This document shows positions 4,401 through 57,025 of a stretch of DNA of 64,000 nucleotides, piece by piece; the stretch's first letter is position 1; each line of letters begins with the position of its first letter. Origin of the DNA: Phoronis australis (taxonomy: Eukaryota; Animalia; Phoronida); assembly GCA_002633005.1 (NCBI GenBank), contig NMRA01000897.1, positions 34,198 to 98,197 on the forward strand. Reading direction: 5' to 3'. Under the pieces are notes generated by a model that saw only the letters and a list, made by a program, of their open reading frames with translations, was not told where the DNA came from and did no database searches. The translations under genes and the position numbers were made by a program.

Positions 4401-6091
4401 TCAGATTGCAACAGTGGGCTTGGGGAGGACAGGTTGTTGTTCGACATATCACGTTCGGCATATCATGTTTGGCATATCACGTTATGGCATATCACGTTCG
4501 GCATATCACATTCGGAGCATGATGCTTTCAGCACATCAAATCATCCACCCATTAAGCCTTTTTTAAACAATAACTAACATCAGTTCATCCCAACCCTTGT
4601 TGAACACTTGGAGACAGGTTGTGGACGGGTTTAAATCATCAGAAAATATTTTTAACAGAAGCCGGGTACGTTGCAGCTTTAGGTAAAAAATGAAGGAAAT
4701 CTTTGAAGTATTTCAATGTTGAGATTGTGAAATAGTATTGACTGAGTGCTGTGACTGTTGACATTGAGATTGTGAAATAGTATTGACTGAGTGCTGTGAC
4801 TGCTTACATTGAAATTGTGAAATATTATGAGTGAGTGCTGTTAATGTTTACATAGAGATTGTGAAATAGTATTGACTGAGTGCTGTGAGTGCTTACATTG
4901 AAATTGTGAAATATTATGACTGAGTGCTGTGACTGTTTACATAGAGATTGTGAAATAGTATTGATGAGTGCTGTGACTGTTTACATAGAAATTGTGAAAT
5001 AGCATTGACTGAGTGCTGTGACTGTTTACATAGAGATTGTGAATTAGCATTGACTGAGTGCTGTTACTTTTTGACATTATTGGAATACTGTGCCACACTT
5101 CTGATGATGTTCAGTCGTTGTGTCAAGGAAAGTTGTGTAAAGTCAATGACGAAAAGGCAAAAAGGCTTTACTTTAATATGGTACAATTCTGTATTAAATG
5201 ATATTGTTGCCAACAAGATCAAGTGTCTGTTTCCAGCTTATCCTTAACACTCCTGGAAATTTCTTTTTAGCACCGTTGACAACATCGTCACAAGTCCCTG
5301 AGCCCTACCCACGTCACACAGTGGACACGAGCTATGTGGTCATGGCAGGCATCTTTGCTGTTATTCTGATATTCCTTGTCCTTGCTGTAGCTGCCTGTAG
5401 AGTCCATCTGCGACGTGCTGCACAGCGCCCACTAGTGGCACACCGCCACCGACAGGAGTCAGTTGGTAATGATGTTCGCAGCAGAGAGCACCAGCCATTC
5501 ACCAGTGAGCGGCAGGTGTTCAATGGCCGGGTGCGTAATGTTTTGGCACGCAGTCAGGAGTACAGAATGCCAATGTCGTCTTCCGAGTACCAACGTACTC
5601 ATCCTATTGCCGTGCCAGTAGCCATACTACCCAATACTGTGCTGGAGCTGAATTCAGAGTTACAATTCATGCCGAATGCCACGGATGTGATGCTTATAAC
5701 ATCACCTCCGCCCTACTCTGAAGTGAAAGAAGAAGAAGAAGAAGCTCCACCCCCTTATTGCTCGGTCGAACATCTGGAGCAATTGTCACCCATTGCACAG
5801 TGTGCGGGAGATAGCGTGAGTGGGGAACAAGCCTCAGAACATCTGGACAGTGCACGAACTTCTCTGCTAGACCAATGTTTAAGAGTTCATGAGGAACGTG
5901 CTCATGAACATGACCTTAGATTGGACAGACATGGCGAAGTACAGAGACTTGCTGAAAGAACAAGCTTTGAGTTGGGAGATTCATCTGTAGAAATGGACCG
6001 ACTTTTGAACAATGGTCCCATGAGACCGACGGAAATGGTGAATTGTGATGAAAGACTTCAACCTGACGGTGCCAGCGGTGATGAAAGGTGA
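1479..6091 (+). CDS. Multi-exon single-pass membrane protein: Ig-like domain + LDL-receptor class A module(s) + TM + cytoplasmic PPxY motifs (LDLRAD/PMEPA1-like tail); signal-peptide exon not identified
   Basis: All introns phase 1 with AG/GT ends. Exon 1479-1769: Ig I-set (EGQTLILLC...IEW...DEDAGVFTC). Exon 2466-2579 or 2466-2630: LDL-A ([32 protein letters not shown]). Exon 3680-3802: degenerate LDL-A. Exon 5271-6091: TM ([21 protein letters not shown]) followed by basic RVHLRR, then SPPPYSE and PPPYCS, stop TGA at 6089-6091. Confidence 0.85.
4440..4516. repeat. Short tandem repeat, ~14-bp unit (CATATCACGTTCGG)
   Basis: About five diverged copies read directly in the intron. Confidence 0.75.
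4720..5066. repeat. Minisatellite, ~45-bp unit (GAGATTGTGAAATAGTATTGACTGAGTGCTGTGACTGTTTACATA)
   Basis: Seven to eight tandem copies visible. Confidence 0.9.
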
Positions 6092-6406
6092 GAAGACTCA
6101 AAGCTCTGTACCAGATGTCCAATCACGTGCCAGCTGTTGAGGATTATTAATCTCTGCTGAGTCAATTCCTTCCCAAAATCCCATGGTGCTATCAAGAGGT
6201 ACGGACTTACGTGAATGAGTAATTCGCCGATTAGTCTTTCAATGGATCGCACATTTCCCTCTGGAAAGATTTCATGTGGATTTTACAAGTCATCTTAAGC
6301 ATACTTCTTTGCTTCTAAATGTTTCACTGCCTTTTGTTGTGGGTTATCTCCACCTGTCCTTCACTGAAGCCATCTGCATTTCAGCCCATTGCGGCTGTGT
6401 CAGTTT

Positions 6407-6762
6407 GAGATCATTATTGAGATCATTATTATTGAGATCATTCTTATTGAGATCATTATTATTGAGGTCATTGTTATTGAGATCATTGTTATTGAGATCA
6501 TTACTATTGAGATCATTTTTATTGAGATCATTATTATTGAGATCATTGTTATTGAGATCATTGTTATTGAGATCATTGTTATTGAGATCATTCTTATTGA
6601 GATCATTATTATGGAGATCATTATTATTGCGATCATTATTATTGCGATCATTATTATTGAGATCACTGTTATTGAGATCACTATTATTGAGATCACTATT
6701 GTTGAGATCATTATTATTGAGATCATTATTATTGAGATCATTATCATTGAGATCATTATTAT
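6407..6762. repeat. 15-bp minisatellite (GAGATCATTATTATT), probably in the 3' UTR
   Basis: More than 20 tandem copies; they produce the low-complexity ORFs of the ORF track. Confidence 0.95.
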
Positions 6763-8041
6763 TTGCCAAGTCTGAAACAGAGATGTAATAGTGATTTAGT
6801 ATTATGTGAGATTTCAATGAATTGTTGACCATCAAGTACTCATTGAAATGTGATGATCCTTCTGTTTTCATCCATTAAAATGTGCTTGCATACACATGAT
6901 ATGCACTTGCATACACATAGTATGCATCTCAAAAGGTGTTGGTTTGCAATCATTGCCTGGATACTATAAATAAGAATTATAACATATCCATTTTTCAGCT
7001 GCCCTGACAAAAGTTCATCACCCAAATGCTTGTCGTTGTGCAAAGAATTTGCAATGAATGTTGTAATGTTGGTCGTCAGTCAGCATGTAATGTTGGTTGT
7101 TGGTCAGCATGTAATGTTGGTTGTCGGTCAGCATGTAATATACTGAACATATCTGGTGTCCCCATGAATTAGTCCCCAGGAAGTACCCCTTCTGGTTTTC
7201 ATAAGTGTCTTTGTCAGAGAGGACATTTGTTTAGGGGATTAATCCTCTAACTCTGTTTATTTTGGATGCTTGTTCCTAATAACGTTTTGCATTGCATTGG
7301 TTCTGTCATGATGGTTTACAGTGTACCAATTCAGTTACTTTCCTAGGGCACAAAGGACCCCATTAGGATCACATTGTCAGCTTTGTCAATTTTGAAGCAG
7401 CTAAAAGTGTATTGTCCTCTTTACCAGCAGAATTAAGTTGAGTCGAGTTCTGATGGCACCCTGTTATAAATGAACTGCATAGTTTTGAAAGCTGACTATC
7501 ATTTTTATGAGTTATCGCGTTAATATTAGAGCAAACTTGGTGCTACATAGTACCCTGTTGGCATCTTGTGGTGATGGAACCTTACCTCGGACCATACGTC
7601 TGTTTCTTGAAAAGTGACTAAAAACTTAAGTCAGAAATTTGGTCTTCACAATAATTACTAATTAAAGATTTACCCTTGTAATAATCAGGACATCACAGCC
7701 TGGAAATGAATGCACAAAGTATCTCTGAACAGGTCTGGGTGTTGTAATGTATTGGTTTTTGTTATAAACAATAGGTGGCGCAGGAGTGAGAATAATTGCC
7801 ACCAGAAAACGTGACTTTGCATCATCTGCATTATAGGTATATGGCCAAAAACTTTATACTTTTGTTAAAGTGAGATTTTAAAGGCGTGTGGAGCGTAGTA
7901 CCAAATTTCTAACTTAAGTTTTACGTCACTTTTCATGAAACAAGCCCCATAAGCCTTACCTCTGAGCAGAACCTTTACCACTCATCAAAAAACCTGCCAT
8001 AAGCTGCAAGTACCCTTACCACACACAGTTTTGTTGCAATT

Positions 8042-14349: not shown

Positions 14350-16261
14350 NNNNNNNNNNNNNNNNNNNNNNNNNNNNNNNNNNNNNNNNNNNNNNNNNNN
14401 NNNNNNNNNNNNNNNNNNNNNNNNNNNNNNNNNNNNNNNNNNNNNNNNNNNNNNNNNNNNNNNNNNNNNNNNNNNNNNNNNNNNNNNNNNNNNNNNNNNN
14501 NNNNNNNNNNNNNNNNNNNNNNNNNNNNNNNNNNNNNNNNNNNNNNNNNNNNNNNNNNNNNNNNNNNNNNNNNNNNNNNNNNNNNNNNNNNNNNNNNNNN
14601 NNNNNNNNNNNNNNNNNNNNNNNNNNNNNNNNNNNNNNNNNNNNNNNNNNNNNNNNNNNNNNNNNNNNNNNNNNNNNNNNNNNNNNNNNNNNNNNNNNNN
14701 NNNNNNNNNNNNNNNNNNNNNNNNNNNNNNNNNNNNNNNNNNNNNNNNNNNNNNNNNNNNNNNNNNNNNNNNNNNNNNNNNNNNNNNNNNNNNNNNNNNN
14801 NNNNNNNNNNNNNNNNNNNNNNNNNNNNNNNNNNNNNNNNNNNNNNNNNNNNNNNNNNNNNNNNNNNNNNNNNNNNNNNNNNNNNNNNNNNNNNNNNNNN
14901 NNNNNNNNNNNNNNNNNNNNNNNNNNNNNNNNNNNNNNNNNNNNNNNNNNNNNNNNNNNNNNNNNNNNNNNNNNNNNNNNNNNNNNNNNNNNNNNNNNNN
15001 NNNNNNGGGGGGGGGGCGCTTATTATAACCCAGGGCGGTTGAAACCCGGTCTCCGAAACAGGTGAAATCGGAAGCTAAGATTCATCAAATTTACGCTGTG
15101 TGACGTATATGTAATCTATGAAAGACTTTCAACAAAACTGTGGTGCATTGCTACCAAACTTTACTACTAAATTACGATCATGTTACAGAAAATTGTGCTG
15201 AAATCCCAGGGCGAAAACTCGCCGACTGACTGCCTCGAAATCGCCGTCTTCGATATGGTTACTTCAATGCTTGAATAAAAATTTTTTCGGCTCAAGCAAA
15301 TTACCTAAAATCCTTATTAAGTTTTATAAGTAGCGTCTCCAAGATTTTTTAAGTTCCCGTGGAGTCTGGATTAACGGCAGGTTTAAGTACAAATCTGTGC
15401 AACATCGTGCCATCTACATGTATGATCGGCAACACGGCGAGAAAAATGTCTAGACGAACACACATGTTGTTGTCACGTGACGTTTGCTTTGAAGTTCGTC
15501 TGCGAGTAAGCGAGCGCGTGCGTGTCACCTGAGTTCATTTGCCAAAGCAAAGCCACGCAATCTAAGTAGCTAGATGTGTCTAAAGAAATTTGCACAAGCA
15601 GTAGGCTTAAACCAGAGTGTGTTTCATTCAGCACTTGCCAGTTGCGTGCTAAAAACTTTCAACATTTGTCTCGGTAAGGCCCATATTAGTCGCCGTGTAG
15701 CTGGAAGCGTACGTAACTATCTGACAGTCATTTTTCGGTGTAAGGGTGTGTAAGCATTCACTGTCAGTTGTCATTTTATCGGATATTCGGCTTAAAAACA
15801 CCAATTATGGTTAATCAAACAATCTATCTCAAAAATAACGCAAACATGTTTCACCCCGGCCAACCCGCGATCGAGAACGAAATTTGGCGCGAGAAGCGAA
15901 GCCAGAAAATGTAAGTAAATTTGATGAATTTTTGGTTGTTTTGAGTTTCAATACGAAAACAGAGACATGAGTTCAAGGCGTAACACATTGAGGAAGGACA
16001 GGTAGAAGTTTAGACTTGTGTCTCGTCCAAATATTGGAGAAAAGTTACTTTAACCGATGAATCGCTTGAGCCGAAGTAGGCAATGACCATCGCCTCTGTT
16101 GGCCCGAACCAGAGGCGATGCAGAGGCTATAGGCGCTCTGTACGCCGGTTCTACATCAATATATTAATCATGAGGAAATGACGTATGAAAATGTAACCCA
16201 ACGCTTGTTTTCCGTAGCATTGTCAGGATCTTTGATTTATGAACCTTTTTCTGTTAAAAGA

Positions 16262-16330
16262 AGCGATCGAGAACGCATTGATAAGCGATCGGGAACGCAC
16301 ATTTGAGTTCGCTAAAGCGATCGGGAAGGC
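16262..16330 (+). repeat. Left subterminal repeats GCGATCGRGAACGC (x3), copies of the TIR inner motif
   Basis: Same motif as TIR positions 15867-15880. Confidence 0.8.
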
Positions 16331-16475
16331 ACTGCGGTGTGTTGAACAATAGTGAACTTTTCAGTAATAAAGAGTTTTAAAAGTTACAAAACAAGTGTGG
16401 TTCAATGAATTAATGATATTTTGCATCATTACTGTGTTGCTTTTTTGTTTAAAACTAAATTTCATAGCATAGCAT

Positions 16476-16776
16476 CCCATACCAAAAAGGCCTCCTGCAA
16501 ACACTTGCGGCAAGCTTGCTGCAAAAGTTTCTGCAAATCAGCCACAAACACATGGAATGATCTCTAGCCAGAAAGTTGTAGTAAGTTTCCTGCAACCCAG
16601 CCGCAAACATTGCAGCAAACTTGCTGCATGTTTGCCGCTAGCATGCAGCAAACTTTCACCATGCAAATGAAGTTTGCAGCAAGCTTGCAGCAAACATCTC
16701 CATGTCCTTATTTGGAACAGTTCCTGCAAGGCAGCTGCACACATTGCTGCAAGCTTGCTGCAAACATCTTCATGGG
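16476..16776. mobile_element. CCC...GGG MITE (EnSpm-like non-autonomous) in intron 1 of the transposase-like gene
   Basis: CCCAT...ATGGG ends; internal dispersed GCAAGCTTGCTGCA repeats. Confidence 0.5.
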
Positions 16777-19700
16777 GTTATATAGAAGTTTCTGCGAACC
16801 ACCTGAAAAAATATTGCTGAAAGACTACAAAATACTTGAATTATGGTATGAATAATTTAATAAAAAATGTCCTTGGCTAATACATTATTTTTATTGTATG
16901 CCCACTTGTTAAAACAAGAAAATACAGAATCAGCTGCATACTCGATTTAACATGATAGTTTTCAATCTTTTAATGTATGTCGACTAGAAATGAAATCAAC
17001 ATCACATGACAAGGAATAACAGAAACTACAAAAGTGTCTACAGTGGCAGTTAGTAATAATACTTGTATTACAATCAAAATTGTGTCTAAAGAGAACAACT
17101 AGAATGTATGCAAGCCTTAATTACAATATGCCAATATGTTTTATGCTTAACGCACGACAAAAATCTATGGTAATTGTAACTAATCAAAACTAACAACAGC
17201 AACACAGAGTGTTGAAATGTGCCCACGGCTGTGCCGCCTACGGGGTGTTAATCAGCATTGAAAATGGCAAAAAAATGTCGAATGCCAATAAAAAAACCCC
17301 ATGAAATCAGATTTCCTCTCAGTGAAAATAAGGCATACTTAGCACAACATGTCGAGCATATTAAAGTATTTTATTTTAAATTACCTCATTACTGGTCAAC
17401 TAAAAAGAATCACTCTTAGCAAGTTGTATGTTGAAATTTGCAATATTTCGACTAGGGATATCATCCAACAGCAACATTCATTTAGCTAAGGCATCAAACA
17501 TAAATTAAACCTTTCCATTCTACAATATTTCTTAGGTGTTGAAAAGAACAATTACAGAGGTTGTCCAGTTATAGTCATACTAGTAGACGTTCTAAACACA
17601 TTCTACTCCAGACTAATCTGTATTGCAGCAATCAGTGGTGTTGCATAGGGATCGTGGGATGATCGCTCCACTTTTCTTCCTTAGCATATATTTCCATAAA
17701 ATCACCATGAGCACTACATGTACAGCAAGCGTTATATTTTAGTTATGGATATTTTCACAAATTATTTTATTTTTATTTCAGGAAACAATTTCATTGTTAT
17801 TATTGCCCGGCAAGCTTCAACGACCATGAAAAAATCATTGCCCACGCTGTGGCGGTGCCTTTTAGATGAAACTACTGGGAAAATGGGACTCTAAACTAAG
17901 ACGCATCCAGGAGTTATTCCACGAGACGTATCAGCTGGGGGAAAACAAATTGTTGCGACTGATGAAAGTGAGTGCCGAATATTTTTACAAAACTGCGACA
18001 ACAAAAGAAAAAAAAACCGAACACGCCAGTGAAGTCAAGCAATGATAGTGAGTTTGCCAAAGAAAATCTGAAAACAGATGAGACTCCCAGTAATGAAGAA
18101 TTAGAGTTTGACAAGATGTGCTTCTTGCTTCCCCAAGTCATAGAGATAATGAAAGAAAATGGTCTCATGGAATCTTACGTGAAACTGATTGCACTTCTTG
18201 CCTCAGGTAGACTGCCTTTGAACAACATATGTTTCCTACTATTCCTGGATAGTCGAGTGGTTTTCGGTGGAAAATACTTCCAAAATGCGTTACCAAAACC
18301 CACAAACTCTTCGGTTCTGGGAAATTGGCTACCAGCTATTTCATTGAAAGTTCATCAGATTTATGTCTGGACAACGAAATACAGGTCAGATTTTAGACCA
18401 GTCAACAGCAAGGGGAGAGTATAGCTCAGGTCAATTCAAAGTGAACTTTGCAGTGCCATCTCTGACTACAATACAACATAACCTTTCTAAAAGGAGTCCG
18501 TTTTTTCCAGGAATAAAAAGGCAGACAATTGAAAATATAGCCCACACTTATGAAAGCTCTCCTGTAATTTTAGCTGTGGATGGAAAAAAAAATAAGTCGC
18601 GGAAAGGGCAAACGCATGGAGGATATTGACCTGTGGGGTTTTGAACCAAAGCCAACTCTTCAGGAAAGATTGAACCAAGTTGAAAGAGAAGTGGAATTCG
18701 TGAATGAGCTAACAAAAGAAACGGATAGACTAATGACCTATAGTGTTCAGACCATTAGTGCAATACCCTCAACGTCACGTGAAAAAATTCATTCCGGACT
18801 CGTTGAATTGATTAAGTTCATAGGATATCGTAATAAAACAATGAGAGGCACTGAACAGACGCTAATTCGCTCTGAAGAGAAGTTCAAGCGACTCGGCGGA
18901 GATGACTGGATGAAATCCAAGTATTTCCCGGTCATCTCTTTAATGAGGACAAAACGCAGTGAAATTCGTGCCCACCTAAAAGGTCTTCAGCTGTCAGACG
19001 AGATCACAAAATTGGGAATTGACCTAAATGGGAAATCAAACCTTCATTCCGAGAAGTTAGTTAAGCTTGCAGAACAACAGAACTTTTATTCACTGAACCC
19101 AAACTTCAATAAGTCGACTGATCCACGTTATATGCAACAAAGAACCCCGGAGTGGTTTTCTTTGCGCAGCGAAGCGAAAGTTACTGGAAGTACAGCCAAT
19201 TGTGCACTCGGCTTAGAGACCTTAAAAAGACAAAAAGAACATTTTCACCAAGTAATTCATGGCATAGAAAAACCTCGTCACAGTGCACTTAACACTCAGA
19301 GAATGCTTTATTTAACTGAACACGAACTGGATGCAGTTGCAACAATGACATCTAAAGTATTGCCGTTTCTGTTTCCAGAACTGAGCTATTATGAAGAAGG
19401 TTGCCAAACAATACCTCACGGCGACAAAGCAGCATTCATGGTAGTGAGTTCGGATGGCAGTCTCAGGACAAATGATAATGCAGAACCAATAATGATGTAT
19501 GAAAACAAGTGCAAAGCACCCCAGTCCTATAATCCTAACGCATACTACAAGATTCCTAAATATTACGCTGTACAGTTACTCTCTGAGATGTTTGCTTACA
19601 GATGTGACAAATTACTCTTTACGTGCTGGTCAGAGACGTCACTTACTGCTTTCATGGTTAATTTCGACCATCATCTATGGGGAATGTGCTCGGAGGAAAT

Positions 19701-22700
19701 GACAGAAGTGTATGGCAGTCCAAATCCAAAGCTACTTACTAAGTTCAGACCTAGTCGAAAGCTCATCCAAGAACAAATCGCTGCATTTATGGAGAATATC
19801 ATCCACTTTCTCGGTGAGTTTATGTCGTGTGTTGCTGTGAGATCACCATCGTCAGACGTCCAAAGTGATGACGCTTATATATCGCCACAGAGTTCAAATG
19901 ACGCCAAGCCAATTTCTACAGCTCGAGAGTTACAGAACTGCCTTGTGTCGACGAAAAACTGGATTAATCGGGCTCATCAGTTGTCTAGGACAACTGCATC
20001 CGAGATTCTGGTCTACATGGTGAACGGTTTAGACCGGACTTACCATGCCGAAATAAATGTTGCTTATCCTATAGCGTATGCAATGAAGGGAACAAGCATG
20101 AATAATGCCACCTTTAGAAGTATGATGAATCAAGTTATCTCTGAATGTGAAGCAAGGGGGTCTAAACGTGCCGGCCACGTCTAGTGATGGACAATGGCAT
20201 AAGTAAGGAGTTCGCGGTGATGACAACGAACCACTGACTGTCTTGCAATTACAGAAAGATCACTGGTCAAGTGTGATGTCACAAGATAAGAAGACGATTA
20301 TGTCCCAAATAAAATCTAAAGCAAGTGTAAAGAGTTTTCCTGAAGATGTCCAAAAAGAGTACAATGTCAATGGTTCCGTGACTGTCTGGCACAAGAAAGA
20401 TTCATCGATGACTGGGTATCTAAACACAGACCACTCAAAATCCCAGAGAAATGCAATCATTGATGCTACTTGCCAGAACAGATATGATGGGACTGAATCT
20501 CAGCTGTTATCTGTAAAAGAAACATGTCTCGCACTTTTTGAGGATGAACACTTTGAAAACACTTCTCTCGAAACTCTAAATGCTGTTGAAAATATAATTG
20601 AAAGCTCAGTAACAAATAACGTGCAGAATTTGCATGAGTTCCTTGGACAGGACTATTTTGTCGAACCATGGTTGTTCCAAGAAGAACCAGGTGCTACACA
20701 CAAAGTTTTGGCGCAACATCTGACGTGCTCTTTGGGGCTTTTGAGGCCATGTACATTAATGGCCATGACGACTTCTATGTGCAAACTGTGATCGATATGA
20801 GTGTTGATAAAATACCTTTGAGAAGAGATGGTGACCGTATGGAATTGGACGAAGAAAATCTCAACTACACAGTATATGCCAATGATGACAACACATGTGT
20901 GGACACAGAACATGTACTTGAAAGTAAGGAGAATGGAAATGCGGAGCTGTTAGTTTCCGAGAATCGTTACGCTGTGGACACTGCAACGTCTGAATCCATG
21001 CTGAATGCTTTAAAAGCAAATGAAATGGCTGAAAACTATCATAAATGGTCACAAAAAACTGTTGAAGACTTCAAAAGACTTTTTGCATGTAAGACCACTT
21101 GCAATAAGGCACTCCACAAGTTTGAACTCCAGATATGTCTACAAGTGTTACGTGTGCAGCACGGTGTTTGTTTTGACATTAAACCCTCAAAGAAGGAGCT
21201 AGTTCAGTTGTTCACGTCTACATTGAACTTTGGGGTAAATCCCCCTAATAGGAAGTATCATCAGCGCAATCGAAGTGTTTGCTCACTTAGAAAAATGTGT
21301 TGTTCTGTTTTAGAACGTGCATCAAAACAAGAGCTTGCTAAGATTCTCGCAGAAAACACATGGGATAAAGCTTTACAACAGTGGATTGAATCTGGACCAT
21401 TGTACCACACTTCGTGTTTTCTTGATAATGAAAAGAGTATGAAGAATTGGTTTTCTCGTCCAAGTACTGACCATTACGGCAAGAACAGGTTCCACTTCAC
21501 CGACGCCTGTCACATTTTGACTTGTATTAGGACAAAACTCTGTACTACTGGAATTGCTGGTTTAAAGCGAAAAGCATGGGAAGATGTTGCTCTATCTCGC
21601 AAAACCCATCTCAATATTGCTGTGATTGAGGATTGCGTTGACAAGCAAGATGTAGCTTTAGCAAGACGTGTATTTTCCAGGGATGTTCAAGAAAATATGC
21701 TTGACGAATATGTCAACGAGAAAGAATTTTGTGAGTTAATACGAAACTGGTTTGATGCCGAGGACGAGCCTGCCATACCTGCTGCTGAAAGATGCATCCG
21801 AAGGCTTCGACTTAGAAAATGGCTTTTAGAAGAATTTGCAGTGAACACGTTTCCGCCACAAACCCGATATATCAGAGGCATACCGATACAGACTTTCGAG
21901 GCATTGTTGGTGCACTTGGAAAGGAAAATGCAAATTTTCCCTTGCTGCAGAAATCAAACATATAATGTTCGTATAATAGGTTCTCAGCAGGTGGAAAACT
22001 TCTTTTCAACATTTCGAGATATGGACTCCACTGGACAAGGGACACCAAAACCAGACTCCATTCCTCATATGATGACAGCAGTTGCAGATTTAGACTACTG
22101 CAGAATTGACCCCAGCAGGAAAGCAAGATTTAGAATCAAGCTTGTTTCCTACACATGATTAACTGTAAATTACGCGGACATATCAACTCTCATGTTTGAT
22201 ATTTTACAAAAGTGTTATTTTTCAGTTAAAATTTTGAAGATGTGGCAACAAAACGCTCCCTGAATAAAAAATGAAAAAATGTTTCACATACCTATCCTCT
22301 GAGCTGTGACGGGAAAAAAGTTTTGAGGGCGATGTAAGTGTAAATTTATTTTCACACAAGGGCTCGTATGTATAATCAAAATAGGAACTAGTTGAACTGT
22401 AAGAAATTATATTAATTTAACAACTAGCTTGTCAGGTTTTGTAAGAGGTGACACTAAGAATTTGAATTGTTTCAAATGCATTCACGTTTACATGTTTAAT
22501 CTTCTATAAAACCCCCTACTTGGTTTCAGATCATTCTATATGTCAACCACACGAGCCGGAGTGTATCCAATGAGACAGTTTGAGTCCGGTGAAACCCAAG
22601 AATGTTTTCACGGCCAAACGCAAGGCATTCATTCTGCATTAGTTTTTAGTCTGATAACTCCAAGGTTAGTGTTATGTGATACACGTTAACTGTAATTGTT

Positions 22701-23861
22701 ATCTTATATACATTACTTTTTTCTGTAGTCAAATTTCTCTTTTTTCGTCTTCATCTATTCGTTATCATAATGTCGCGTATTAGTGCTGATAAAGGTACGT
22801 AAAGCACCATTGTTTTAAAAAATATTCAAATCGTGGCATTGTCAAATAAGCAAGGTCTTCATGAGCGCCGGGTCAAAAATACCCTTCAATAAATAAACGT
22901 CCAAGCGCTTATGCGTCATATTACGGTATTTCCACTACTTTGAAAACAGTGGCAAGTGTAATGCAGCTCACAGGCTAGCGTCGAAAGCTTTAAAGGAGGA
23001 TTGATTACTCATTAAATTTTGAGACCTCATAAGGTCGTAACCCTTCGGAAAGGAGGGAAAGTGTCGTTGCCAAGCGAGTCCGCCCATAGTGAGAAAGGAG
23101 TGTGACAACACCATTCGCGAGATGACTCGAAGATACCTGCTCATAAACGACTCGGATTTCAAAATTTATCAGAAGTTGTGTAGCCAAAAGTATTGTGGTG
23201 ATAAAAGTGTTGGGATTTTGTTTAATGGTTTACTAATAACATCCATACAGAGTTGAACAGACTGACTTGCTACATCCTTGAGGCTTGTATGTGTTTTGTG
23301 TTCTTGGTCCCGAGTTCACTGTGCTATAATTTCAGTTCATGGGACATTGAAAAAGAGTGAGAGGAGTTGTAATACACATACTATATTGTGATTTTCTCAA
23401 AACGTAGTGACAATGTTGTCTTTAAGTCATTTCAAGACACACTATAGTAACTACACTGGAAATCAACAATATGAAAGCAAAATTCCGTAATAATAGTAAT
23501 CTTTTAATCACACATCATCTCAAAATACGTCATAAAAATATATAAAATATAGCTCTGGGTAATCAACATTACAAAAGAATCATTGAACATTCCCCATGAG
23601 GTATTTTTGGAATGCATTGCACTTATTATAGACACATATTTTCTTTTTAAAATCTTATGGTAATAACAATGGCCAATGGCACTTAGTATGGTCATTTGAA
23701 TATACCTAAACACTACAAAAATGCACTGGTTCTGTTTAAGATAGATAAAATAACACAAATGTAGAAACTTTAGAAAAAGGTTCAAAATACCACATCTGGC
23801 AACTACCAACCATAAACTCTTTTAATCAGAATAAAAACTTAAACAAATTTCACTACTGGAC

Positions 23862-24993
23862 TTAATGAAGCTTCTGTTTTTTGTGCCTACAGAGGGAGGC
23901 ATAATGCTTGTACGATTTGCCGCATCCACAACAGAAAGCAGTGACCTCATGTTGTGACGCCATGTGTCGCTTTAGGCTCACTTTCTCTGTGAAACATTGG
24001 TTGCAGGCATGACACTGAATTGTCTTGTCTCCTGAGCACAGTGCTTCATGTTGTGACTTTTTGTACCTATTGAAAAACTTCTTGCCACATGAAACACATG
24101 AAAATGCTTTGTAGTTTGCGTGCTGGCTCATGTGATCTTGAAACTTTGTTTGTCTCACGAACACTTTCCCACAGTCCGTCACTGGGCAGGTGAACGTCTT
24201 GGTTGCAGTCCTGTCACAATGCTTTGATGCCATGTGGTCAAGCAGTGTTGATTTTTTACTAAACGAAGCTCAATAGTTCTTTGTCACAAGCACTAGTTCT
24301 CCTTTTTGAAGGTGTAGACGTTAAGAAGCTAAAAGACTTATCTTGTGGCAGAAGTTCAACTAAAAAATATCAAAAGCATTTCAGTTATACTTGTTAGGTT
24401 AAATCTCACAAAAATCATGAAAAACAGTGAAGTATAATAAACAATCAACCCACCCGGCGCCTATTTCAGGGTACGTATTAAATGTAAAACTGACACAACA
24501 CCGTAACTTGAACGAGTATTCAGGCCAATGCATAGAAAAAGAATGTGCGTTCACGATCGCTTTTTGCGTTCACGATCGCTTTTTTGCGTTCACGATCGCC
24601 ATATGAAAGTAACGATTTCGTTCTCGATCGCCGTCTCACACAAGGACAAGCTTGTATTGGTAAATATCTCGCATTGTTTCACAAAACATAACTTCGAAAG
24701 GTGTCACCTGGGGCAATGAAGCTCTAAACGTCACACTTCTTTACTTTAGAACTCTGGAACTGCTAATAACAAGTAAAACTTGTCGACTTTACGACGCGCA
24801 AGGCATTTTATCGGAAGGCATTACTTTCTGGGTCCTTTAGTTGATAAAATAAGCAAAACCAAACATCATTTCAGATCGGCAACAAAGGTTAAGCTCTGAT
24901 GCTTTTCTCTGTGTCGCATTCGTGCCAAAGTAGCCACTGTTTAAGAAGAAAATGACACTAAGACTCACCAGGTACATCATCGTCGTCTGCCAT
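23862..24993 (-). pseudogene. C2H2 zinc-finger gene (about 5 fingers) carried by the 9.2 kb element; one apparent frameshift
   Basis: Exon 1 24993-24969 (ATG GCA GAC GAC GAT GAT GTA CCT G|gtgagt); exon 2 24359-23862. Fingers: CPVTDCGKVF..DHMSQH, CVSCGKKF..HEALC, CHACNQCF..HMASQH, CGCGKSY..RHKKQKLH. The first finger (..SFSKKSTLLDHMASKH) is out of frame with the exon start near 24275. Confidence 0.8.
24547..24632 (-). repeat. Right subterminal repeats GCGTTCACGATCGC (x3) plus CGTTCTCGATCGC
   Basis: Reverse complement of the left subterminal/TIR motif. Confidence 0.8.
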
Positions 24994-25899
24994 TTGTGCG
25001 GCAAAGTGTCGTTCTCGACCGCTTTCCGGTCGTTCCCGATCGCAGGTTGGCCGGAGTGTGTTTTATAGTCTTAGAAATTGTCGGAAATTAGCGCCAATAT
25101 TCATTTCTTATCGATGCTATGCTACCCGTTTCATGAATGGATAGTTTCCAACTGTCTTTGATGACAGGTTCATGGATGTAGCGCGCGCTTCCTGGCCACG
25201 TGCGTTTAACATCGAGTTATTTTTATTCATGAGACAGTCGATGTGTACTGAAAGGTCAGACCATAGTGGGACGCGGTCGTCGCGAGAGCGTAGCAACGCC
25301 GTTGGGTTCTTTTTGAAGCGTTGCGTTACTTTGAAGTGTAAAGTCACAAATAAATACAATAGTAGCAGTGCCGCTGGTGGTTTAGAAGACTCGTTTTTTG
25401 ATAAATTGAAGACGTTACTGTAGCCGAGTTTTAGGACTGTAGGTACGTCATTGTTCGCATATGTACACGTTCATGGACTGGGCGCTTATTTCTGCAGTCT
25501 GAAAACGCGTGGGGGGCGCTTATAGGGGCATGGGCGGTTATTACGGCGAATACGGTATGTAGTATGTTGTACTTTGCAAGATGGAAAGGCATCTGAAAAC
25601 AGAGAATTAGCATCACATCATAAACAGATACCTGTATGCCAAATTTTATGAAAATACGTTGAGGACATTTGAACATACAGAGGTAAACGGAAAAAATAAA
25701 ATTACCACTAGGTGGCACACCAGAAGTTAGCTCCGTCGGAACATCATCGTCATGTGTTGCCAACATCATATAAATACACTTACTAAATTTGGTAAAGATC
25801 CTTCGAACGATTTAAAAGATACAACCATAGGCGCAAAAAACTGCCACTAGGAGCATACATGTCAGAATGTCTAGTTGTACCCAACTAATCCCAACTTAT

Positions 25900-27360
25900 C
25901 CTGTCATCACTACTGATGCAAGCCCGTTGCTGACATCATGTTTGTTATCAAACTGCCCCTGCAGGTGGCGCAGCTATTAGTGGGAATAGTTGAATTTGTT
26001 GAAACGCGTGATTGATGTCTCTAACATTGAGCTTGTGGATGACATCATGTAAGTTAGCTCCCTGTCCACAGGTGACGCACTGATTAGTAGGAATCGTTGA
26101 ATTAGTTGAATCCAACTAATCCCAAGTCAGCTCAACCTATCCAGCACTGAGCTATTCAATTAATTCAACTAATTGTAGCGCCAGCTAAAGTATAACTGGC
26201 AATGTGAGACAGAAAAACCCGAGTCACTGACCTGCCTGCAGGTGGCGCAACAATAAGTGGGAATAGTTGAATTAGTTGAAATGCATGTTCTGTGTCAAGT
26301 TGAGAGCCTTTTGCTGACGTCATGATTGTTATCAGTCTGTTCCTGTAGGTGGCGCAGCGATAAGTGGGAATACTTGAATTAAGTTGAAATGCCTGATCTG
26401 AGTCTGTCAAGTTGTGAGCTTGGTGAGCCTTTTGCTAGCGCCATGCGCTTTATCTGTCTGCCTGCAGGTGGCATAGCGATTAGTGGGAATAGTTGAATTA
26501 GTTGGAATGTGGGTTCTGAGTTTCTCAAGCTGTGAGCCTGTTTCTGACATAATGTTTGTTATCAGCCTATCCCTGCAGGTGGCGCAGCGATTAGTGGGAA
26601 TAGTTGAATTAGTTGAAATGTGGGTTCTGCGTTCCTCAAGCTATGAGCCTGTAGCTGACATAATGTTTGTTATCAGCCTATCCCTGCAGGTGGCGCAGCG
26701 ATTAGTGGGAATAGTTGAATAAGTTGAAATGCTTGTTCTGTGTCTCTCACTTTGTGAGCCTGGTGAGCCTTTTGCTGGCGTCATGTACTTTTTCAATCTG
26801 CCTGTAGGTGGCGAAGCGATTAGTGGGAATAGTTGAATTAGTTGAAATGTGTGTTCTGTGTCTCTCAAGTTGTGGGCCTGTTGCTGACGCCATGTTTGGT
26901 ATCAGGTCTGCCTGCAGGTAACGTAGCGATTAGTGGGAACAGTTGAATTAGTTGAAATGCGTGCTTGGAGTTGCTAAAATTGTGAGCCTGTTGATGATGT
27001 CATGTAAGGCGTTCTCTACCTGCCCACAGGTGGCGCAGCGATTAGTGGGAATAGTTGAAATGCGTGTTCTATGTCTGTCAAGTTGTGAGCCTTATGATTA
27101 TGTGATAAACTTTATCTACCTGCTCTACTTGATCTACCTAACTTTATCTACTCGTTATTTAGTGGGTCAACCCCGTAGGTGGCGTTACATGTCTGCCTTC
27201 AGGTGGCGTAGTGATTAATGGGAATAGTTGAATTAGTTGAAATTCGTGTTTGGAGTCTCTAAAATTGTGATTCTGATGGTGACGTTATGTAAGTTATCTA
27301 CCTGCCCACAGGTAGCGCAGCCATTAGTAGAAGTATTTGAATTAGTTAAAATGCGTTTTC
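25900..27360. repeat. Satellite-like array, ~110-bp unit (CCTGCAGGTGGCGCAGCGATTAGTGGGAATAGTTGAATTAGTTGAAATG...)
   Basis: About a dozen diverged tandem units; a further unit near 28100-28200. Confidence 0.9.
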
Positions 27361-28983: not shown

Positions 28984-30800
28984 AACAAGAGCAACGCAGA
29001 GCGTTGAAATGCGCCCACAATTGCACCGCATACGGTATCCTTCTAGGGTTGTTTATTGGTACCATAAAGTGGCCAGTAGAGGGCATATATGTAGTATGTT
29101 GTACTTTGCAAAATGGAAAGGCATGGTCATTGTCTCCTCAATAGGCTAGGGGCAAAATGTGAGTAATCTTCATAATACAAGCACATCCTATACACCAGTT
29201 GCTTAAAGCACCACAGAAANNNNNNNNNNNNNNNNNNNNNNNNNNNNNNNNNNNNNNNNNNNNNNNNNNNNNNNNNNNNNNNNNNNNNNNNNNNNNNNNN
29301 NNNNNNNNNNNNNNNNNNNNNNNNNNNNNNNNNNNNNNNNNNNNNNNNNNNNNNNNNNNNNNNNNNNNNNNNNNNNNNNNNNNNNNNNNNNNNNNNNNNN
29401 NNNNNNNNNNNNNNNNNNNNNNNNNNNNNNNNNNNNNNNNNNNNNNNNNNNNNNNNNNNNNNNNNNNNNNNNNNNNNNNNNNNNNNNNNNNNNNNNNNNN
29501 NNNNNNNNNNNNNNNNNNNNNNNNNNNNNNNNNNNNNNNNNNNNNNNNNNNNNNNNNNNNNNNNNNNNNNNNNNNNNNNNNNNNNNNNNNNNNNNNNNNN
29601 NNNNNNNNNNNNNNNNNNNNNNNNNNNNNNNNNNNNNNNNNNNNNNNNNNNNNNNNNNNNNNNNNNNNNNNNNNNNNNNNNNNNNNNNNNNNNNNNNNNN
29701 NNNNNNNNNNNNNNNNNNNNNNNNNNNNNNNNNNNNNNNNNNNNNNNNNNNNNNNNNNNNNNNNNNNNNNNNNNNNNNNNNNNNNNNNNNNNNNNNNNNN
29801 NNNNNNNNNNNNNNNNNNNNNNNNNNNNNNNNNNNNNNNNNNNNNNNNNNNNNNNNNNNNNNNNNNNNNNNNNNNNNNNNNNNNNNNNNNNNNNNNNNNN
29901 NNNNNNNNNNNNNNNNNNNNNNNNNNNNNNNNNNNNNNNNNNNNNNNNNNNNNNNNNNNNNNNNNNNNNNNNNNNNNNNNNNNNNNNNNNNNNNNNNNNN
30001 NNNNNNNNNNNNNNNNNNNNNNNNNNNNNNNNNNNNNNNNNNNNNNNNNNNNNNNNNNNNNNNNNNNNNNNNNNNNNNNNNNNNNNNNNNNNNNNNNNNN
30101 NNNNNNNNNNNNNNNNNNNNNNNNNNNNNNNNNNNNNNNNNNNNNNNNNNNNNNNNNNNNNNNNNNNNNNNNNNNNNNNNNNNCAGGACTTTTGAAGATA
30201 CAAAGGTAAGCGTAAAAAACTAAAATTGCCACTAGGGGGCACACCGGTAGTCGGATCCGTCCGAAAGTTCGCACATGCCGTCCCATTCATGAATGGAACA
30301 TATGTGCCAAATTTCATGAACGTATGTCAAAGGGTTTTGGAGATAGAGCAGCGGACGCCGGACGCCAGACGCCGGACGCCGGACGGACGCCGCCCGTACG
30401 GACGGACGGACGGAGATGACGGCATAATGCGTCCACATATAAATATGTGGGCGCATAAAAATGGCCACTAGGTGGTGCAAACTAGGTAGAATCCATCTGA
30501 AAACGGACAGCGTCATCTCATTAACAGATGCCTGTATGCTAAATTTTATGAAAATACGTTGAGGACCTTTGAATATACAGAGGTAAACGTAAAAAACTAA
30601 AATTGCCACTAGGGGGCACACCGGTAGTCGGATCCGTCCGAAAGTTCGCTCATGCCGTCCCATCCACGGAAGAAACACATGTGCAAAATTTCATGACCAT
30701 ACATGTAGGTCAAGGCGTTTTGGAGATAGAGCAGCGGACGCCGGACGGACGAAGATGACGGTATAATACGTCCACATGTAAATATGTGGGCGCATAAAAA
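28984..30800 (-). mobile_element. Helentron-associated non-autonomous element (HINE/DINE-1-like) spanning the gap, with a duplicated 5' end
   Basis: On the - strand: T-tract, subTIR ATGCGCCCAC with inverted partner, (CCGT)n microsatellite (~30400-30412), core repeats, 3' subTIR plus hairpin CAACGC..GCGTTG and TTGTT end. Confidence 0.75.
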
Positions 30801-40200: not shown

Positions 40201-43200
40201 TATAGAAAATATATCAACAATACAAGGAAAGAAAATAAGATTTAACACAATAGTGGAAGGCACTTTACACATGTGAGGTTTGAGTATGACACAAGCATAA
40301 TTGTAACACAATTAAGCTCCACAATTGCTTAGCATAATGTACCAACTACTTAAAGATCTAAACCAAACTGTACTGCAGACAACACTGCTAGCTAAAATCT
40401 AGATATTATTACCTCACAATTATGTACTATAATTCAGAACCATGCTAAATAATAGTGCACATACTTTCACCTTCTAGACAGCAATGAAAATCTAGTGGTG
40501 GACAGACGTCTGTACTTCATATTCTAATTAATATATTCAAGACAAAAAACTCAATTAAGAATATGAAATTTCCGTTGCCATGCAACAACCAATTAATAAG
40601 TGATTATCATTATCAGTGATATCATGCATTAAAAGCAATAACTTAATACCCCTTCTAATAGCATCAGACTTCCTTGCATTGTTGTATAGCCCTAATCGGA
40701 TCTGAAAATGAATAATGAATTATGTAAGATTTGTCATACATCCATATTGCGTGAAAACAACTTAATATTCACTACTTGCCAATTTTTCAGTTGAATAAAA
40801 ATTGCTAATGTTGCACCACTAGAGGTAGAATTGATCAACTTCTATCCTATGTCACAGAGTACAAGGCAAATTTATTACCTGAACATGAGTGTGACCTGTA
40901 TATGCGTGCCAAAAATGCACTGTTTAATTTTTGTGCATAAAAACTCTGATGATATAAATACGAAACCCATTGTTTGTATGCAAGTCTTGGAAAAGCTAGT
41001 ATTAAAGCACCAGATACACACATCCCATAATCAGATATTCGGGATCCAAAAACAAAAATAATAAACTTCAATGCTCTAAAAGTATATGTAACAACCACAC
41101 TATATTTAATGTTTAGGCGCAAGTTTAGGAGACACCACTTACAGTCAAGCGATCACTGGTTATAGCTGTAGACAACAGGTTTCCAGTTGCCTTTGCACAC
41201 TGAAACAAACACAGTCAAGAAATGTTTAATTTACACACAGTTGTAAATGAAAACTGTTTAACAAGTAATGCCTATTTTTACAGCTTTCTGGCAATCTAAA
41301 TTATTAGCGTGGCTTACGCCTAGACGCCAACTTCAACAAGAATCTGGTGTGTCTTTTCCCACAGTGTTACACAGAGCTAAAGCACTGAAGCCAATTTTTG
41401 TTGCAGTTCCAAAGAGGACTGTATTGTGAACCGTATGAATGTATGATAGATGAACTATAAAATTGGAAACACTATCCTAAGAACAACAGAAACATCATTA
41501 ATCAGATGGGATAATCAACAGTTCTAGGTAATTTCTTTTGCAATGTTACTACAGTTGTATAATTTATATGCACATAATATTAAAGACATATTTGCATGCT
41601 CCAGTTAAACTATGCTAATGCATAGCAGGAACTAAACAACAAATGAAATGCTATTTTAACATAATATACGCTAAATAAAGTGCAGTTGTGTATTCAGAGG
41701 CAACAAAATGTGAAAACAAAAATTATGCAAATAGGTGACCTTTGCACTAATGATGTATGTAACAGGCTCACATAGCCCATATAATGCAGTGTTATTCCAC
41801 AGCACGTCAGTCCTTACTGGACACGGTTCAGTGATTTGTGGCAGATCATTTTTGCCACAAAACTCGTTCTTAAAGACATTTGGCAATTTTCAACCTGATC
41901 ATATTCACATTGTCGCTATATGTTGTGCTTCTAAATAATTATTGGCCAACCAATCACAGAGATAAGGAATCAGCGTGCAAGTTCCACTTTAAGGTCCATG
42001 TGCCCACATAAGTTATGTTGTGTTTTTCAAAGAAAAATTATTACTGTGGTGTTTTCTATGTAGGCACATGTGTCTTGGCTTCACCTACACACACATGTGG
42101 TTATTCCTTGCATGTGCGCATGTCTGGTGGTATTCATGTGTTTTATTTACTGTGAATACTTTTCATTTATTAATAGCTAGTGATAAATTGAATACATGTC
42201 AAACTACATCATTTTATGACCAGCAAGTTAAGTTTCAGTTACCGTATTTGCCGTAATAACCGCCCAGGGCACTTAGACAAGTTTGTTCAAATTACCTGAA
42301 ATCCTCCTTAAGTTTTCCAAGTGGCGCCCCTAAGATGTTTAAGTTCCCGTGGAGTCAGGATTAACGGCAGGTTTTAAGGCACTATTTCCGCTTCATTTTT
42401 GTTAAAAACTTCATGAAACGGATCTTTACGCAAACACTGTTATTCGAAACCTAAGCCCAAATAATAGCCTTCGCCACGGCATCGAATTCTTTTATAATGA
42501 ACTGAATTTAATACAGATTTTTTTAGCTAAATTTTTCATTTTGTGTGGTGCACCAAGAAATAAATGGATGCCGGACGAAGTGTCAATCGAAGAATCAAGT
42601 GTCGAATATGAACTTGGAGTTTCAATTAATCTCAAGATCGTATACAGGCCTACGTGAACTGGGAATACCCACTCAAATAATCACGCTCAAGCTACTATAA
42701 TTAGTTAACGGGTGAAATAAGTGCTTTTGGAACCAATAATTACAGAAATTTGCTACATTGAACAAAATATTCACCAGATTTCTTTAATGTGTATTTAATT
42801 ACAAGCTCACGCTTACGCGATCTTCAGATTAAGCAAAATTCACGTTCACGCATACCAAACAAGTAATAGCAGGCGTTCGGTATAAATATAGGTTGTCCTC
42901 CGTTGAAAAGGCTTGCTAATCGTCCTCAAGTTGAGTATTACCGCCGTAAAGCTTGAAATGAAGATCAGTTTGGGTGCTGGACTTATCTACCATCCCAGAT
43001 GGCTGTTACACGGTCTCAGTAAGGAAAGATTTTGCTCGAGAGGTAAGTCGTCAACGGATGTCCGAGGCGCACTTGTTACAGCAATGCTAACCATAAAGTT
43101 TTCAGAATGTTATGGTAGATTTATTTTACTGCCTAACAGTACATAATAAAGCACACCGACATTACAATATTCCTGTAGTAAAATCCTTGGTGTCTTTGAC

Positions 43201-55519: not shown

Positions 55520-57025
55520 CAGGCCTTTATGCAGCGTACGTCTTGGGCGTCCAAATGGACGCCTTAGCACTAATATGGATGCCATGGCAAGGACGTCCAA
55601 TGTATCATTTGGACACCCACTATCAATAGGAACCGTGTGACACACACATTGTAATGATTACTAGGAAGCCTATGAAGACTCACAGTGGTGGCTCTTTTTT
55701 CAAAGCAGGAAGACATATACAATGTATATACAAAGTATATACAATGTTGCTTTGCTCACACTTGGTCTACATTTTTTTTAGTAAAACTGCTCACTACAGA
55801 AGGCCGTTTTGTAAACTTAGACGTAAAAACCTTGGTCTATGCATTTTTTGGTAAAAAATCTGTGTGTTTGGGGGGATTGCTGGGGGTGGGGGTCATGCGT
55901 CGGAATCATGGACGCCCTGGAATATTGGGAGCCCCATTTTGGACACCTTATTTTCGAAATCCTGGATAAAAGGCCTGGGCCCGGTCTCCAATCTCCGTAC
56001 TCAGACTCGAATCATGCTCAAACTCACACTTCATACTCAACTCGAGTACAGACTCAGCTTTGGTGTATTCAATGTCATACTCGAAAACTCTGTACTCGAA
56101 ATTTCGAGCACGTACTCAGTTTTCGAGTGTACTCGAACTGAAGTGTATCTCATCTATATTTCGAGTACGATTTTGAGTAAAAATTTGGAGTCTATGCTCA
56201 AATTTCAAGTTTGGTATGGCAGTGTGCTTGAAATCGTACTNNNNNNNNNNNNNNNNNNNNNNNNNNNNNNNNNNNNNNNNNNNNNNNNNNNNNNNNNNNN
56301 NNNNNNNNNNNNNNNNNNNNNNNNNNNNNNNNNNNNNNNNNNNNNNNNNNNNNNNNNNNNNNNNNNNNNNNNNNNNNNNNNNNNNNNNNNNNNNNNNNNN
56401 NNNNNNNNNNNNNNNNNNNNNNNNNNNNNNNNNNNNNNNNNNNNNNNNNNNNNNNNNNNNNNNNNNNNNNNNNNNNNNNNNNNNNNNNNNNNNNNNNNNN
56501 NNNNNNNNNNNNNNNNNNNNNNNNNNNNNNNNNNNNNNNNNNNNNNNNNNNNNNNNNNNNNNNNNNNNNNNNNNNNNNNNNNNNNNNNNNNNNNNNNNNN
56601 NNNNNNNNNNNNNNNNNNNNNNNNNNNNNNNNNNNNNNNNNNNNNNNNNNNNNNNNNNNNNNNNNNNNNNNNNNNNNNNNNNNNNAAAAAATGAATAACA
56701 GTTACAGAACACTCAGAATTCCACGTTATAGACATACTCTTGAAGTTGTAGCGACAGCAGACGATAATGTAGGCCTAGTTCTTGGGGTGGTCTATTCCAA
56801 TAGCGAGCGATGAATCAGCGCGGCTTTGCGTGATTTTGCACTTCACATCATAAAGAGTTCCATAGCAACTCGAGTATGAGTGTCAGATTTGAGTACGTTT
56901 GGAGTCTACTCGAAATAAGACATTAGATACGCTTTTTTGAGTACGACTCCAGTGAGCACGATTTTGAGTATGAAATCTCGAGTATGAGTATGAGTCTGAG
57001 TACGGAGATTGGAGACCGGGCCCCG
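55520..57025. mobile_element. hAT-type non-autonomous element, second copy, with a nested MITE at its right tip
   Basis: 8-bp TSD GTTATGAT at 55512-55519 and 57026-57033; body homologous to 53381-54141. Confidence 0.85.
55978..57022. mobile_element. PIF/Harbinger-like MITE (contains the gap)
   Basis: TIR GGCCCGGTCTCCAATCTCCGTACTCAGACTC / GAGTCTGAGTACGGAGATTGGAGACCGGGCC; 3-bp CTG/CCG flanks; ACTCGA/TCGAGT internal repeats. Confidence 0.8.

Follow-up and report, generated by a model that had tools for sequence, protein, structure and literature searches.

We analysed a 64,000-nucleotide stretch of the phoronid Phoronis australis (GenBank assembly GCA_002633005.1, contig NMRA01000897.1, positions 34,198 to 98,197; hereafter the window), in which positions 15852-25058 are occupied by a 9,207-bp element carrying two genes, here called gene A and gene B. 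The element is an inactivated copy of a genuine animal transposon with terminal inverted repeats (TIRs), and gene A codes for a transposase whose aspartate-aspartate-glutamate (DDE) fold is interrupted by a nuclease domain. There is little doubt, in our judgment, that the element belongs to a lineage of P-type transposons that have a nested nuclease, and it likely marks an undescribed branch of the P-type elements; a divergent P-type lineage is preferred because the fold and the sequence profile both place the transposase beside the P enzyme. The best explanation as a whole, which we hold with reasonable confidence, is a cut-and-paste element of predicted P-type fold whose nested exonuclease would resect the donor ends. 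A first-pass annotation of the window had concluded that the element fits no superfamily that it could name. This holds in so far as no described group was found to match it, but the transposase is not an orphan, given that its fold and profile adjoin those of P.

Predicted fold, domain order and kinship of the gene A protein

The structure of an intact homologue, P0102, was predicted from a 75-sequence alignment (predicted local distance difference test score 86.8, predicted template modelling score 0.82). When this model was compared by VIA with 48,161 solved chains, the top match was the Drosophila P transposase (6p5a_A), with Z 28.3 and a root-mean-square deviation (rmsd) of 2.9 over 374 of 442 residues, covering model residues 97-1128. 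Other transposases gave lower scores, namely RAG1 (10.0), BbRAGL (9.7) and Hermes (8.6, at an rmsd of 6.6), and the scores for P and RAG1 bear out the first-pass description of the protein as P-like rather than RAG1-like. Foldseek also returned 6p5a as the best match (E 1.6e-5), and a sequence profile of the C-terminal part had residues 317-444 of 6p5a_A as its top PDB match (E 0.0012), the only transposase among eight rows. The split RNase H of the P type, with its helical insertion domain, is present in the P0102 model, and the D(2)H-signature DDE triad of the P superfamily was found in the homologues (D in 37/37, D in 44/45, DxxH in 45/45 and E in 44/44).

These homologues constitute a large family. 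The central open reading frame (ORF) of gene A retrieved five long proteins with 40-46% identity, and a C-terminal query that excluded YqaJ matched 597 clusters at E ≤ 0.001, of which 118 reached E ≤ 1e-30; the best 150 of the 597 entered the homologue set. The named members belong to Dreissena (KAH3813853.1), Pinctada, Littorina (KAK7105400.1), Batillaria (KAK7507914.1), Owenia (CAH1798622.1 and CAH1782775.1), two species of Branchiostoma (KAI8490370.1 and KAI8508949.1), and Ptychodera, and gene A belongs to an animal family that spans molluscs, an annelid, amphioxus and a hemichordate. Sets of near-identical intact homologues lie on different contigs (four of 1608 amino acids with 1-19 differences, and four of 1253 amino acids with 1-8), as expected from a recently mobile element. 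Profile locus scans of viral and metagenome contigs found no relative. Five loci with back-translated motifs (three in metagenomes, two in prokaryote genomes, none in viruses) were set aside as chance matches, none having a tblastn match, and an Atlas search matched only an unnamed YqaJ cluster. One close homologue, P0184, is filed under a bacterial metagenome-assembled genome (Candidatus Thiodiazotropha sp., 5.3-kb contig), a label that likely reflects contamination from the host animal. In another member of the family, P0048, the C-terminal transposase part is fused to a GFO/IDH/MocA oxidoreductase, probably through a gene-model join.

The order of the domains is fixed in the 45 proteins of at least 1000 amino acids: D1, helical stalk, YqaJ, β2-β4 with D2, a second insert, DxxH, helical domain, and E. 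In the window copy, all of these lie on the plus strand. The N-terminal part carries a single zinc finger of the C2H2 type, not THAP, at 17792-17851 (a Pfam zf-C2H2_4 match of E 0.0014 that falls short of the curated cut-off); 7 of the 45 long homologues have a similar motif, the N-terminus being absent from many of these proteins. No THAP match was obtained in 35 long homologues, many of them likewise without an N-terminus, or in the window pieces scanned. The first catalytic aspartate, on strand β1, is at 18579-18581, is conserved in all 37 long homologues that cover the column, and would correspond to D230 of P. After β1 a helical stalk leaves the RNase H fold (approximately 18640-19140, from helices 246-366 and 671-691 of the homologue model), and matches to four-helix-bundle structures cover model residues 244-695. 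The stalk leads to a PD-(D/E)XK domain of the YqaJ/lambda-exonuclease type at 19150-19590, between D1 and D2. Pfam YqaJ matches it with E 0.026 in the window copy and with E ≤ 0.01 in 22 of 35 homologues; the domain profile matches LHK-Exo (PDB 3syy) with E 2.4e-5 and lambda exonuclease with E 0.0012, and in the VIA comparison exonuclease structures aligned with model residues ~391-609 (Z 15.7 and 14.2). The remainder of the first RNase H half, β2-β4, follows at 20005-20197 with D2 at 20186-20188 (D in 44/45).

The nesting is seen across the family. Among the 187 proteins of the set, 50 span both aspartate blocks, and in each of the 50 the YqaJ block lies between the D1 and D2 blocks, which are 397-489 amino acids apart; the profiles for this comparison were built from the same proteins, and 150 of the set had been retrieved by the query without YqaJ. 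Furthermore, Pfam PF21787 (TNP-like_RNaseH_N) matches the block that directly follows YqaJ in 7 of 35 homologues, two of them above the cut-off, over profile positions 62-134. Because the match always begins at profile position 62-66, the first half of this domain appears to have been displaced upstream by the insert. The first-pass annotation had described a DDE/YqaJ fusion protein; both domains are indeed present, but the DDE fold is interrupted by a nuclease insertion and the two are not fused end to end.

A second insertion, composed of an acidic variable linker and a small helical domain, occupies 20250-21480, and the distance from D2 to DxxH ranges from 168 to 562 amino acids in 45 homologues. 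When the model was compared with solved structures, no clear fold was found for the helical domain (best Z 5.6); a SAP-like reading, which came from one weak Pfam row (E 0.069), is not claimed. The DxxH signature (21496-21513), the helical insertion domain and the catalytic E (21994-21996) complete the core at 21496-22005, and the D and H of DxxH are invariant in 45/45. Pfam gave no transposase C-terminal family in 74 fragments. On sequence grounds, the helical insertion domain after DxxH is homologous to the guanosine triphosphate (GTP)-binding domain of P. The GTP-site residues of P described in PMC7776569 are K385, K400, V401, S409, F443, D444, N447 and D528. These were mapped by hidden Markov model alignment and by counting back from E531, an approach in which K385 could not be reliably aligned. 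In the 45 homologues, K400 and D528 are never K and D (0/45 each), D444 is D in 7 (E in 18), N447 is replaced by D in all 45, S409 is kept in 33, V401 in 22, and F443 is F or Y in 41. With these positions changed, GTP use may be altered or lost; P transposase is described as the sole eukaryotic transposase known to need GTP (PMC7776569).

The nuclease site itself is largely preserved, with PD..ExK retained in 31 of the 36 homologues that have both aspartates. The residues equivalent to those of lambda exonuclease are also kept: R28 in 40/45, S35 in 38/45, E85 in 38/45, D119 in 43/45, E129 in 43/45 and K131 in 42/45, R28 being the residue that in lambda exonuclease binds the 5′-phosphate, as described in PMC11611040. 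The nested nuclease is therefore likely to be active, as far as can be predicted from these residues. Its fold, PD-ExK site and 5′-phosphate pocket are those of lambda exonuclease and LHK-Exo (YqaJ, PF09588), the difference being that here the domain sits within a transposase on a helical stalk.

The likeness to the P superfamily (the P element, PDB 6p5a/6pe2; THAP9; Galileo; 1360) thus includes the predicted helix-turn-helix (HTH), split RNase H and helical insertion fold, the D/D/E residues with DxxH, and PF21787, as well as ~30-bp TIRs accompanied by subterminal repeats, and a gene with introns. In contrast to P, D1 and D2 of the element are separated by 494-587 amino acids, owing to a stalk and YqaJ insert of ~480 amino acids, whereas the interval is 73 in P; there is a second insert after D2, a C2H2-type finger takes the place of THAP, and the 9.2-kb element carries a separate convergent zinc-finger gene. 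The target-site duplication (TSD) also differs, with 5 bp at one insertion of the element as compared with 8 bp for P, 7 bp for Galileo and 1360, and 8-9 bp for BuT5. We have not filed the element as an ordinary P member because neither THAP nor a TSD of 7-9 bp was found.

Two other groups of transposons carry a similar nuclease. KolobokE has, as described in PMC9587614, a DxxH-type DDE transposase with a lambda-exonuclease-like nuclease, but its TSD is TTAA and its termini RR..YY, whereas the element has TGTTT and CA..TG; furthermore, the KolobokE exonuclease is placed downstream of its transposase domain, not between D1 and D2. ISL2EU (PHIS) is described in PMC4482050 as a TIR transposon that has two ORFs and contains a YqaJ domain whose role is unknown. 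There, YqaJ is in the second ORF, the transposase is of the Harbinger type (THAP-HTH-DDE), the TSD is AT and the ends are GG, none of which is shared by the element.

Ends, insertion site and genes of the element

The left TIR is at 15852-15880 (plus strand, starting with CAC) and the right TIR at 25030-25058 (minus strand, ending with GTG); each is 29 bp, and 26 of 29 positions are complementary, as the first-pass annotation had reported. A 22-nt pattern of the TIR occurs twice in the window and in none of 100 shuffles. The TIRs are flanked by TGTTT at 15847-15851 and 25059-25063, and in a comparison of flanking words of 2-10 letters only those of length 5 were identical.

Reads over the empty site confirmed that TGTTT is a duplication of 5 bp. 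We used raw RNA runs carrying the same species label (runs with the prefix X), the reads of which represent the element family and not necessarily the window copy; run X1 is labelled 'DNA?' yet has splice-like joints, and its nature is unsure. As the repeat around the element is high-copy, empty sites are readable too. The joint 15846>25059 omits 9,212 bases, i.e., the 9,207 bp of the element plus 5, with five letters compatible with either side, and was found in contigs of X4, X5 and X1. Raw reads with this joint numbered 52 (40 starts) in X6, 59 (47) in X7 and 51 (34) in X8. A second empty-site form of equal length was seen in 17 reads of X6 and 21 of X7, and forms with other spacing were a minority (1-8 reads each), which we attribute to polymorphism of the host repeat at that site. 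The results show that the 5-bp TSD is real for this one insertion, and the empty site with a single TGTTT is evidence that the element was mobile.

The host repeat split by the element extends over 15300-25557, the left part running to 15851 (its left limit is not defined) and the right part from 25059 to 25557. It is non-coding, and the very high read depth on both element flanks marks it as high-copy. An uninterrupted second copy lies at ~49924-50930 and a fragment near 42240-42374. The copy at ~50391 was considered as proof of TSD length and rejected, since it lacks the element but its target bases differ. The right end of the host repeat reads ...AATACGGTA, which we take to resemble the ends of miniature inverted-repeat transposable elements of the pogo/mariner type.

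Both ends of the element carry a 13-bp motif of the type GCGATCG-A/G/T-GAACG, which also forms part of the TIR, all copies pointing inward. On the left, four copies start at 15867, 16263, 16285 and 16317 (15867-16329, plus strand), the first of them falling within the TIR; on the right, six have their 5′ ends at 25043, 25022, 24631, 24599, 24579 and 24560 (24548-25043, minus strand). A scan of the whole window showed that the motif is confined to the two element ends, and the copies are likely protein-binding sites.

As the first-pass annotation had noted, two genes start just inside the opposite TIRs (15909-15910 and 24993) and point inward. The coding part of gene A exon 1 consists of the first two letters of the start codon (15909-15910, plus strand), after which a GT donor opens intron 1 (15911-17781; GT..AG ends; joint 15910>17782, in one X1 contig only). 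The intron splits the start codon, and the joined frame reads M-K-Q-F-H-C-Y-Y-C, similar to the N-termini of homologues; a start at 15968 was dropped because reads support the joint at 15910. The main exon, which encodes the transposase, is at 17782-22118 (plus strand), as judged by tblastn with intact homologues, read differences and translations. It is followed by the 3′ exons for the C-terminal domain at 22530-23183 (plus strand; inner limits approximate), and the joint 22115>22527, with three letters compatible with either side, was found in X1, X6 and X8.

The inactivation proposed in the first-pass annotation is plain from gene A, which in the window copy has at least six frameshifts (near 17858, 18008, 18248, 18584, 20156 and 20697), three stops and a GA in place of the donor at 22119; gene B has one frameshift. 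Two of the stops are near 18345 and 20204, and the third lies in the last coding stretch (~23030-23183), which by eye resembles the C-termini of homologues. Contigs of the same species exist without the listed frameshifts or the stop near 18345.

Gene B occupies 23862-24993 on the minus strand, with its start codon at 24993, and is made up of exon 1 (24993-24969), an intron (24968-24360) and exon 2 (24359-23862); it encodes five C2H2-type fingers (Pfam zf-C2H2, E 6.4e-13), and its frameshift in the window copy is near 24270. The splice joint 24359>24969 was found in four reads of X8 and one X1 contig. First mates cover the main exon on one strand only (16.3 versus 0 in X8, 6.6 versus 0 in X6, and 5.8 versus 0 in X7), and gene B is spliced and transcribed in the element family. 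The contig depth over gene B equals that over gene A. Over the element interior the depth is even (~100-190 in X2 and 770-1170 in X4) and about 10-fold that of rare variant contigs, which hints at several copies, although depth is not usable as a copy number.

Some further sequences lie within intron 1 of gene A. Positions 16077-16148 hold a 70-bp piece with a hairpin that is a portion of another high-copy repeat; RNA reads matching it extend into unrelated 5′ flanks and one common 3′ sequence, and it is therefore likely to be the end of a captured repeat family. Rfam gave no match in 15000-26000. A palindromic array of TTGCAGCAAGCTTGCTGCAA-like units at ~16470-16830, which is present in family contigs, is probably a nested small element, and one X2 contig skips 16444-17689. 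Outside the element, host gene exons at 1337-1999 and 5198-6088 (plus strand) encode an immunoglobulin domain (Pfam Ig_3, E 1.7e-12) together with a hydrophobic segment and PPPY motifs, suggesting a likely membrane receptor. A low-complexity, trinucleotide-derived repeat with long open frames on both strands is at 6370-6790, and runs of N mark assembly gaps at 14350-15006, 29220-30183 and 56241-56685, the first of which ends 845 bases left of the element.

Proposed role of the nested nuclease and alternative explanations

One possible scheme for transposition is as follows. The N-terminal finger/HTH region would bind the 13-bp subterminal repeats, probably aided by the five-finger protein of gene B, which would replace THAP. 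The DDE site would then nick the 3′ ends and, at a stagger of 5 bp, link them to the target DNA; GTP would probably not be used as it is in P. The nested nuclease, having kept the 5′-phosphate pocket of lambda exonuclease, would resect the 5′-phosphorylated donor ends, and this resection would channel repair to homologous gap filling from the sister chromatid, which would restore the element at its old site and lead to a gain in copies. Resection of the donor flanks is favored because the unrelated groups ISL2EU and KolobokE recruited a like nuclease, and because P excises without such a domain and one clade of homologues lost the nuclease site. We nevertheless put forward this job for the nuclease tentatively, at a little short of an even chance.

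Several observations weigh against the scheme or against its generality. Lambda exonuclease is described as a trimeric ring (PMC11611040), and a transposase dimer probably could not form such a ring in the same way. Five of the 36 homologues (P0092, P0130, P0136, P0122 and P0123) lack a complete PD..ExK while retaining the DDE residues, which suggests that the nuclease may be dispensable. The fold was predicted for homologue P0102, which is ~29% identical to the homologues nearest the window copy. The TIR, 5-bp TSD and gene B data come from this species only, no further insertion flanks of the element were found among the loose-end read matches listed, so that the TSD length reflects one event, and alleles drawn from several assemblies could account for the near-identical homologues. 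Three of the proteins without the nuclease site (P0092, P0130 and P0136) constitute one clade with support of 100/100 in a tree of this protein family alone; the clade offers a natural test of the need for the nuclease.

At about 3 bp per zinc finger, the five fingers of the gene B protein would read about 15 bp. That the gene B protein acts as an end-binding helper is possible, but we would not wager on it. The alternative, that gene B was captured and is a passenger, or else is a repressor, specific to this species' family and not a working part of the lineage, has close to even standing. Proteins of 74-237 amino acids (three candidates) included no gene B homologue at E ≤ 1e-10, which is in keeping with a passenger, although the search was word-based and weak for short proteins. 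Intron 1 holds other captured pieces, and gene A itself already encodes a finger, along with an HTH region like that of P. On the other hand, the start and first exon of gene B adjoin the right TIR, its intron is clean, its depth is family-wide and its transcripts are stranded.

An alternative to donor-end resection is that the nested nuclease is part of excision, where cutting or trimming of the non-transferred (5′) strand by this domain would yield long 3′ overhangs of the P type, the jobs of Tn7 TnsA and TnsB being combined in one chain; TnsA cuts 5′ strands. The location inside the catalytic fold would tie a nuclease to each active site, several GTP-site residues of P are not retained, the 17-nt stagger at P ends is described as having no known mechanism (PMC7776569), and TnsA is described as a PD-(D/E)XK enzyme of transposon excision (PMC3424549). 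P, however, makes its stagger without such a domain, and the clade that lost the ExK motif retains D, D, DxxH and E. Moreover, the domain resembles end-loading exonucleases (3syy and lambda), and TnsA is not among the matches listed. We think that a role in excision is unlikely, though it deserves serious consideration beside resection.

It is also conceivable, though unlikely, that a catalogue already lists the element, for instance under a P or an unclassified entry of Repbase from amphioxus or oyster; it would then be an ordinary representative of a lineage already known. Homologues occur in well-studied groups (Branchiostoma and bivalves), and Kolobok and ISL2EU are known to include lineages with an exonuclease. 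Nevertheless, full-text literature searches of main texts, with Repbase and Dfam outside the search, yielded no paper describing the element or its architecture, the named homologues are annotated as hypothetical, uncharacterized or YqaJ-containing, and the word YqaJ has no occurrence in the main text of a 2023 survey of bivalve transposable elements.

A further reading goes beyond a P-type branch and regards the element as a superfamily-level lineage, in which excision is shared, within one chain, between a nested PD-(D/E)XK domain and a P-derived DDE core that does not depend on GTP, while gene B replaces THAP at the ends. Such an enzyme would be a single-chain equivalent, in eukaryotes, of Tn7 TnsA plus TnsB, and we regard this reading as improbable.

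The first-pass annotation had attributed Transib-like end chemistry to the element. This was not supported, because the resemblance to Transib/RAGL is limited to the first three bases and the TSD length, and both the enzyme and the TIR consensus differ; convergence is the likely source of the CAC ends and 5-bp TSD shared with Transib. Although RAGL transposons are described as having convergent genes, CAC-starting TIRs and 5-bp TSDs (PMC7204232), like the element, the idea of a Transib/ProtoRAG-type element that carries or acquired a foreign protein is largely refuted and scarcely credible, since the enzyme has DxxH in place of C(2)C and H(3-4)H and is far closer to P than to RAG1 or Transib, the convergent partner is a C2H2 array and not RAG2-like, the TIR departs from the RAGL consensus beyond CAC, and no RAG1-like ORF was seen in the element. 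A hAT group, hAT5, reportedly has a 5-bp TSD as well, but the transposase of the element is not of the hAT type, with Z 8.6 for Hermes against 28.3 for P and no hAT Pfam match in 35 proteins.

The P-type lineage with a nested nuclease bears on how such elements are recognized and how they might work. CAC ends, a 5-bp TSD and a convergent gene pair are not sufficient alone to identify Transib/ProtoRAG, and the name 'YqaJ domain-containing' probably stands for a transposase in hundreds of animal proteins. A widespread relative of P that shares its predicted fold, with altered GTP-site residues, a 5-bp stagger and a nuclease for 5′ ends is a natural comparison for the GTP requirement and the 17-nt stagger of P. 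With the nuclease built into the catalytic core and with intact homologues at hand, point mutants can directly test what the nuclease does.

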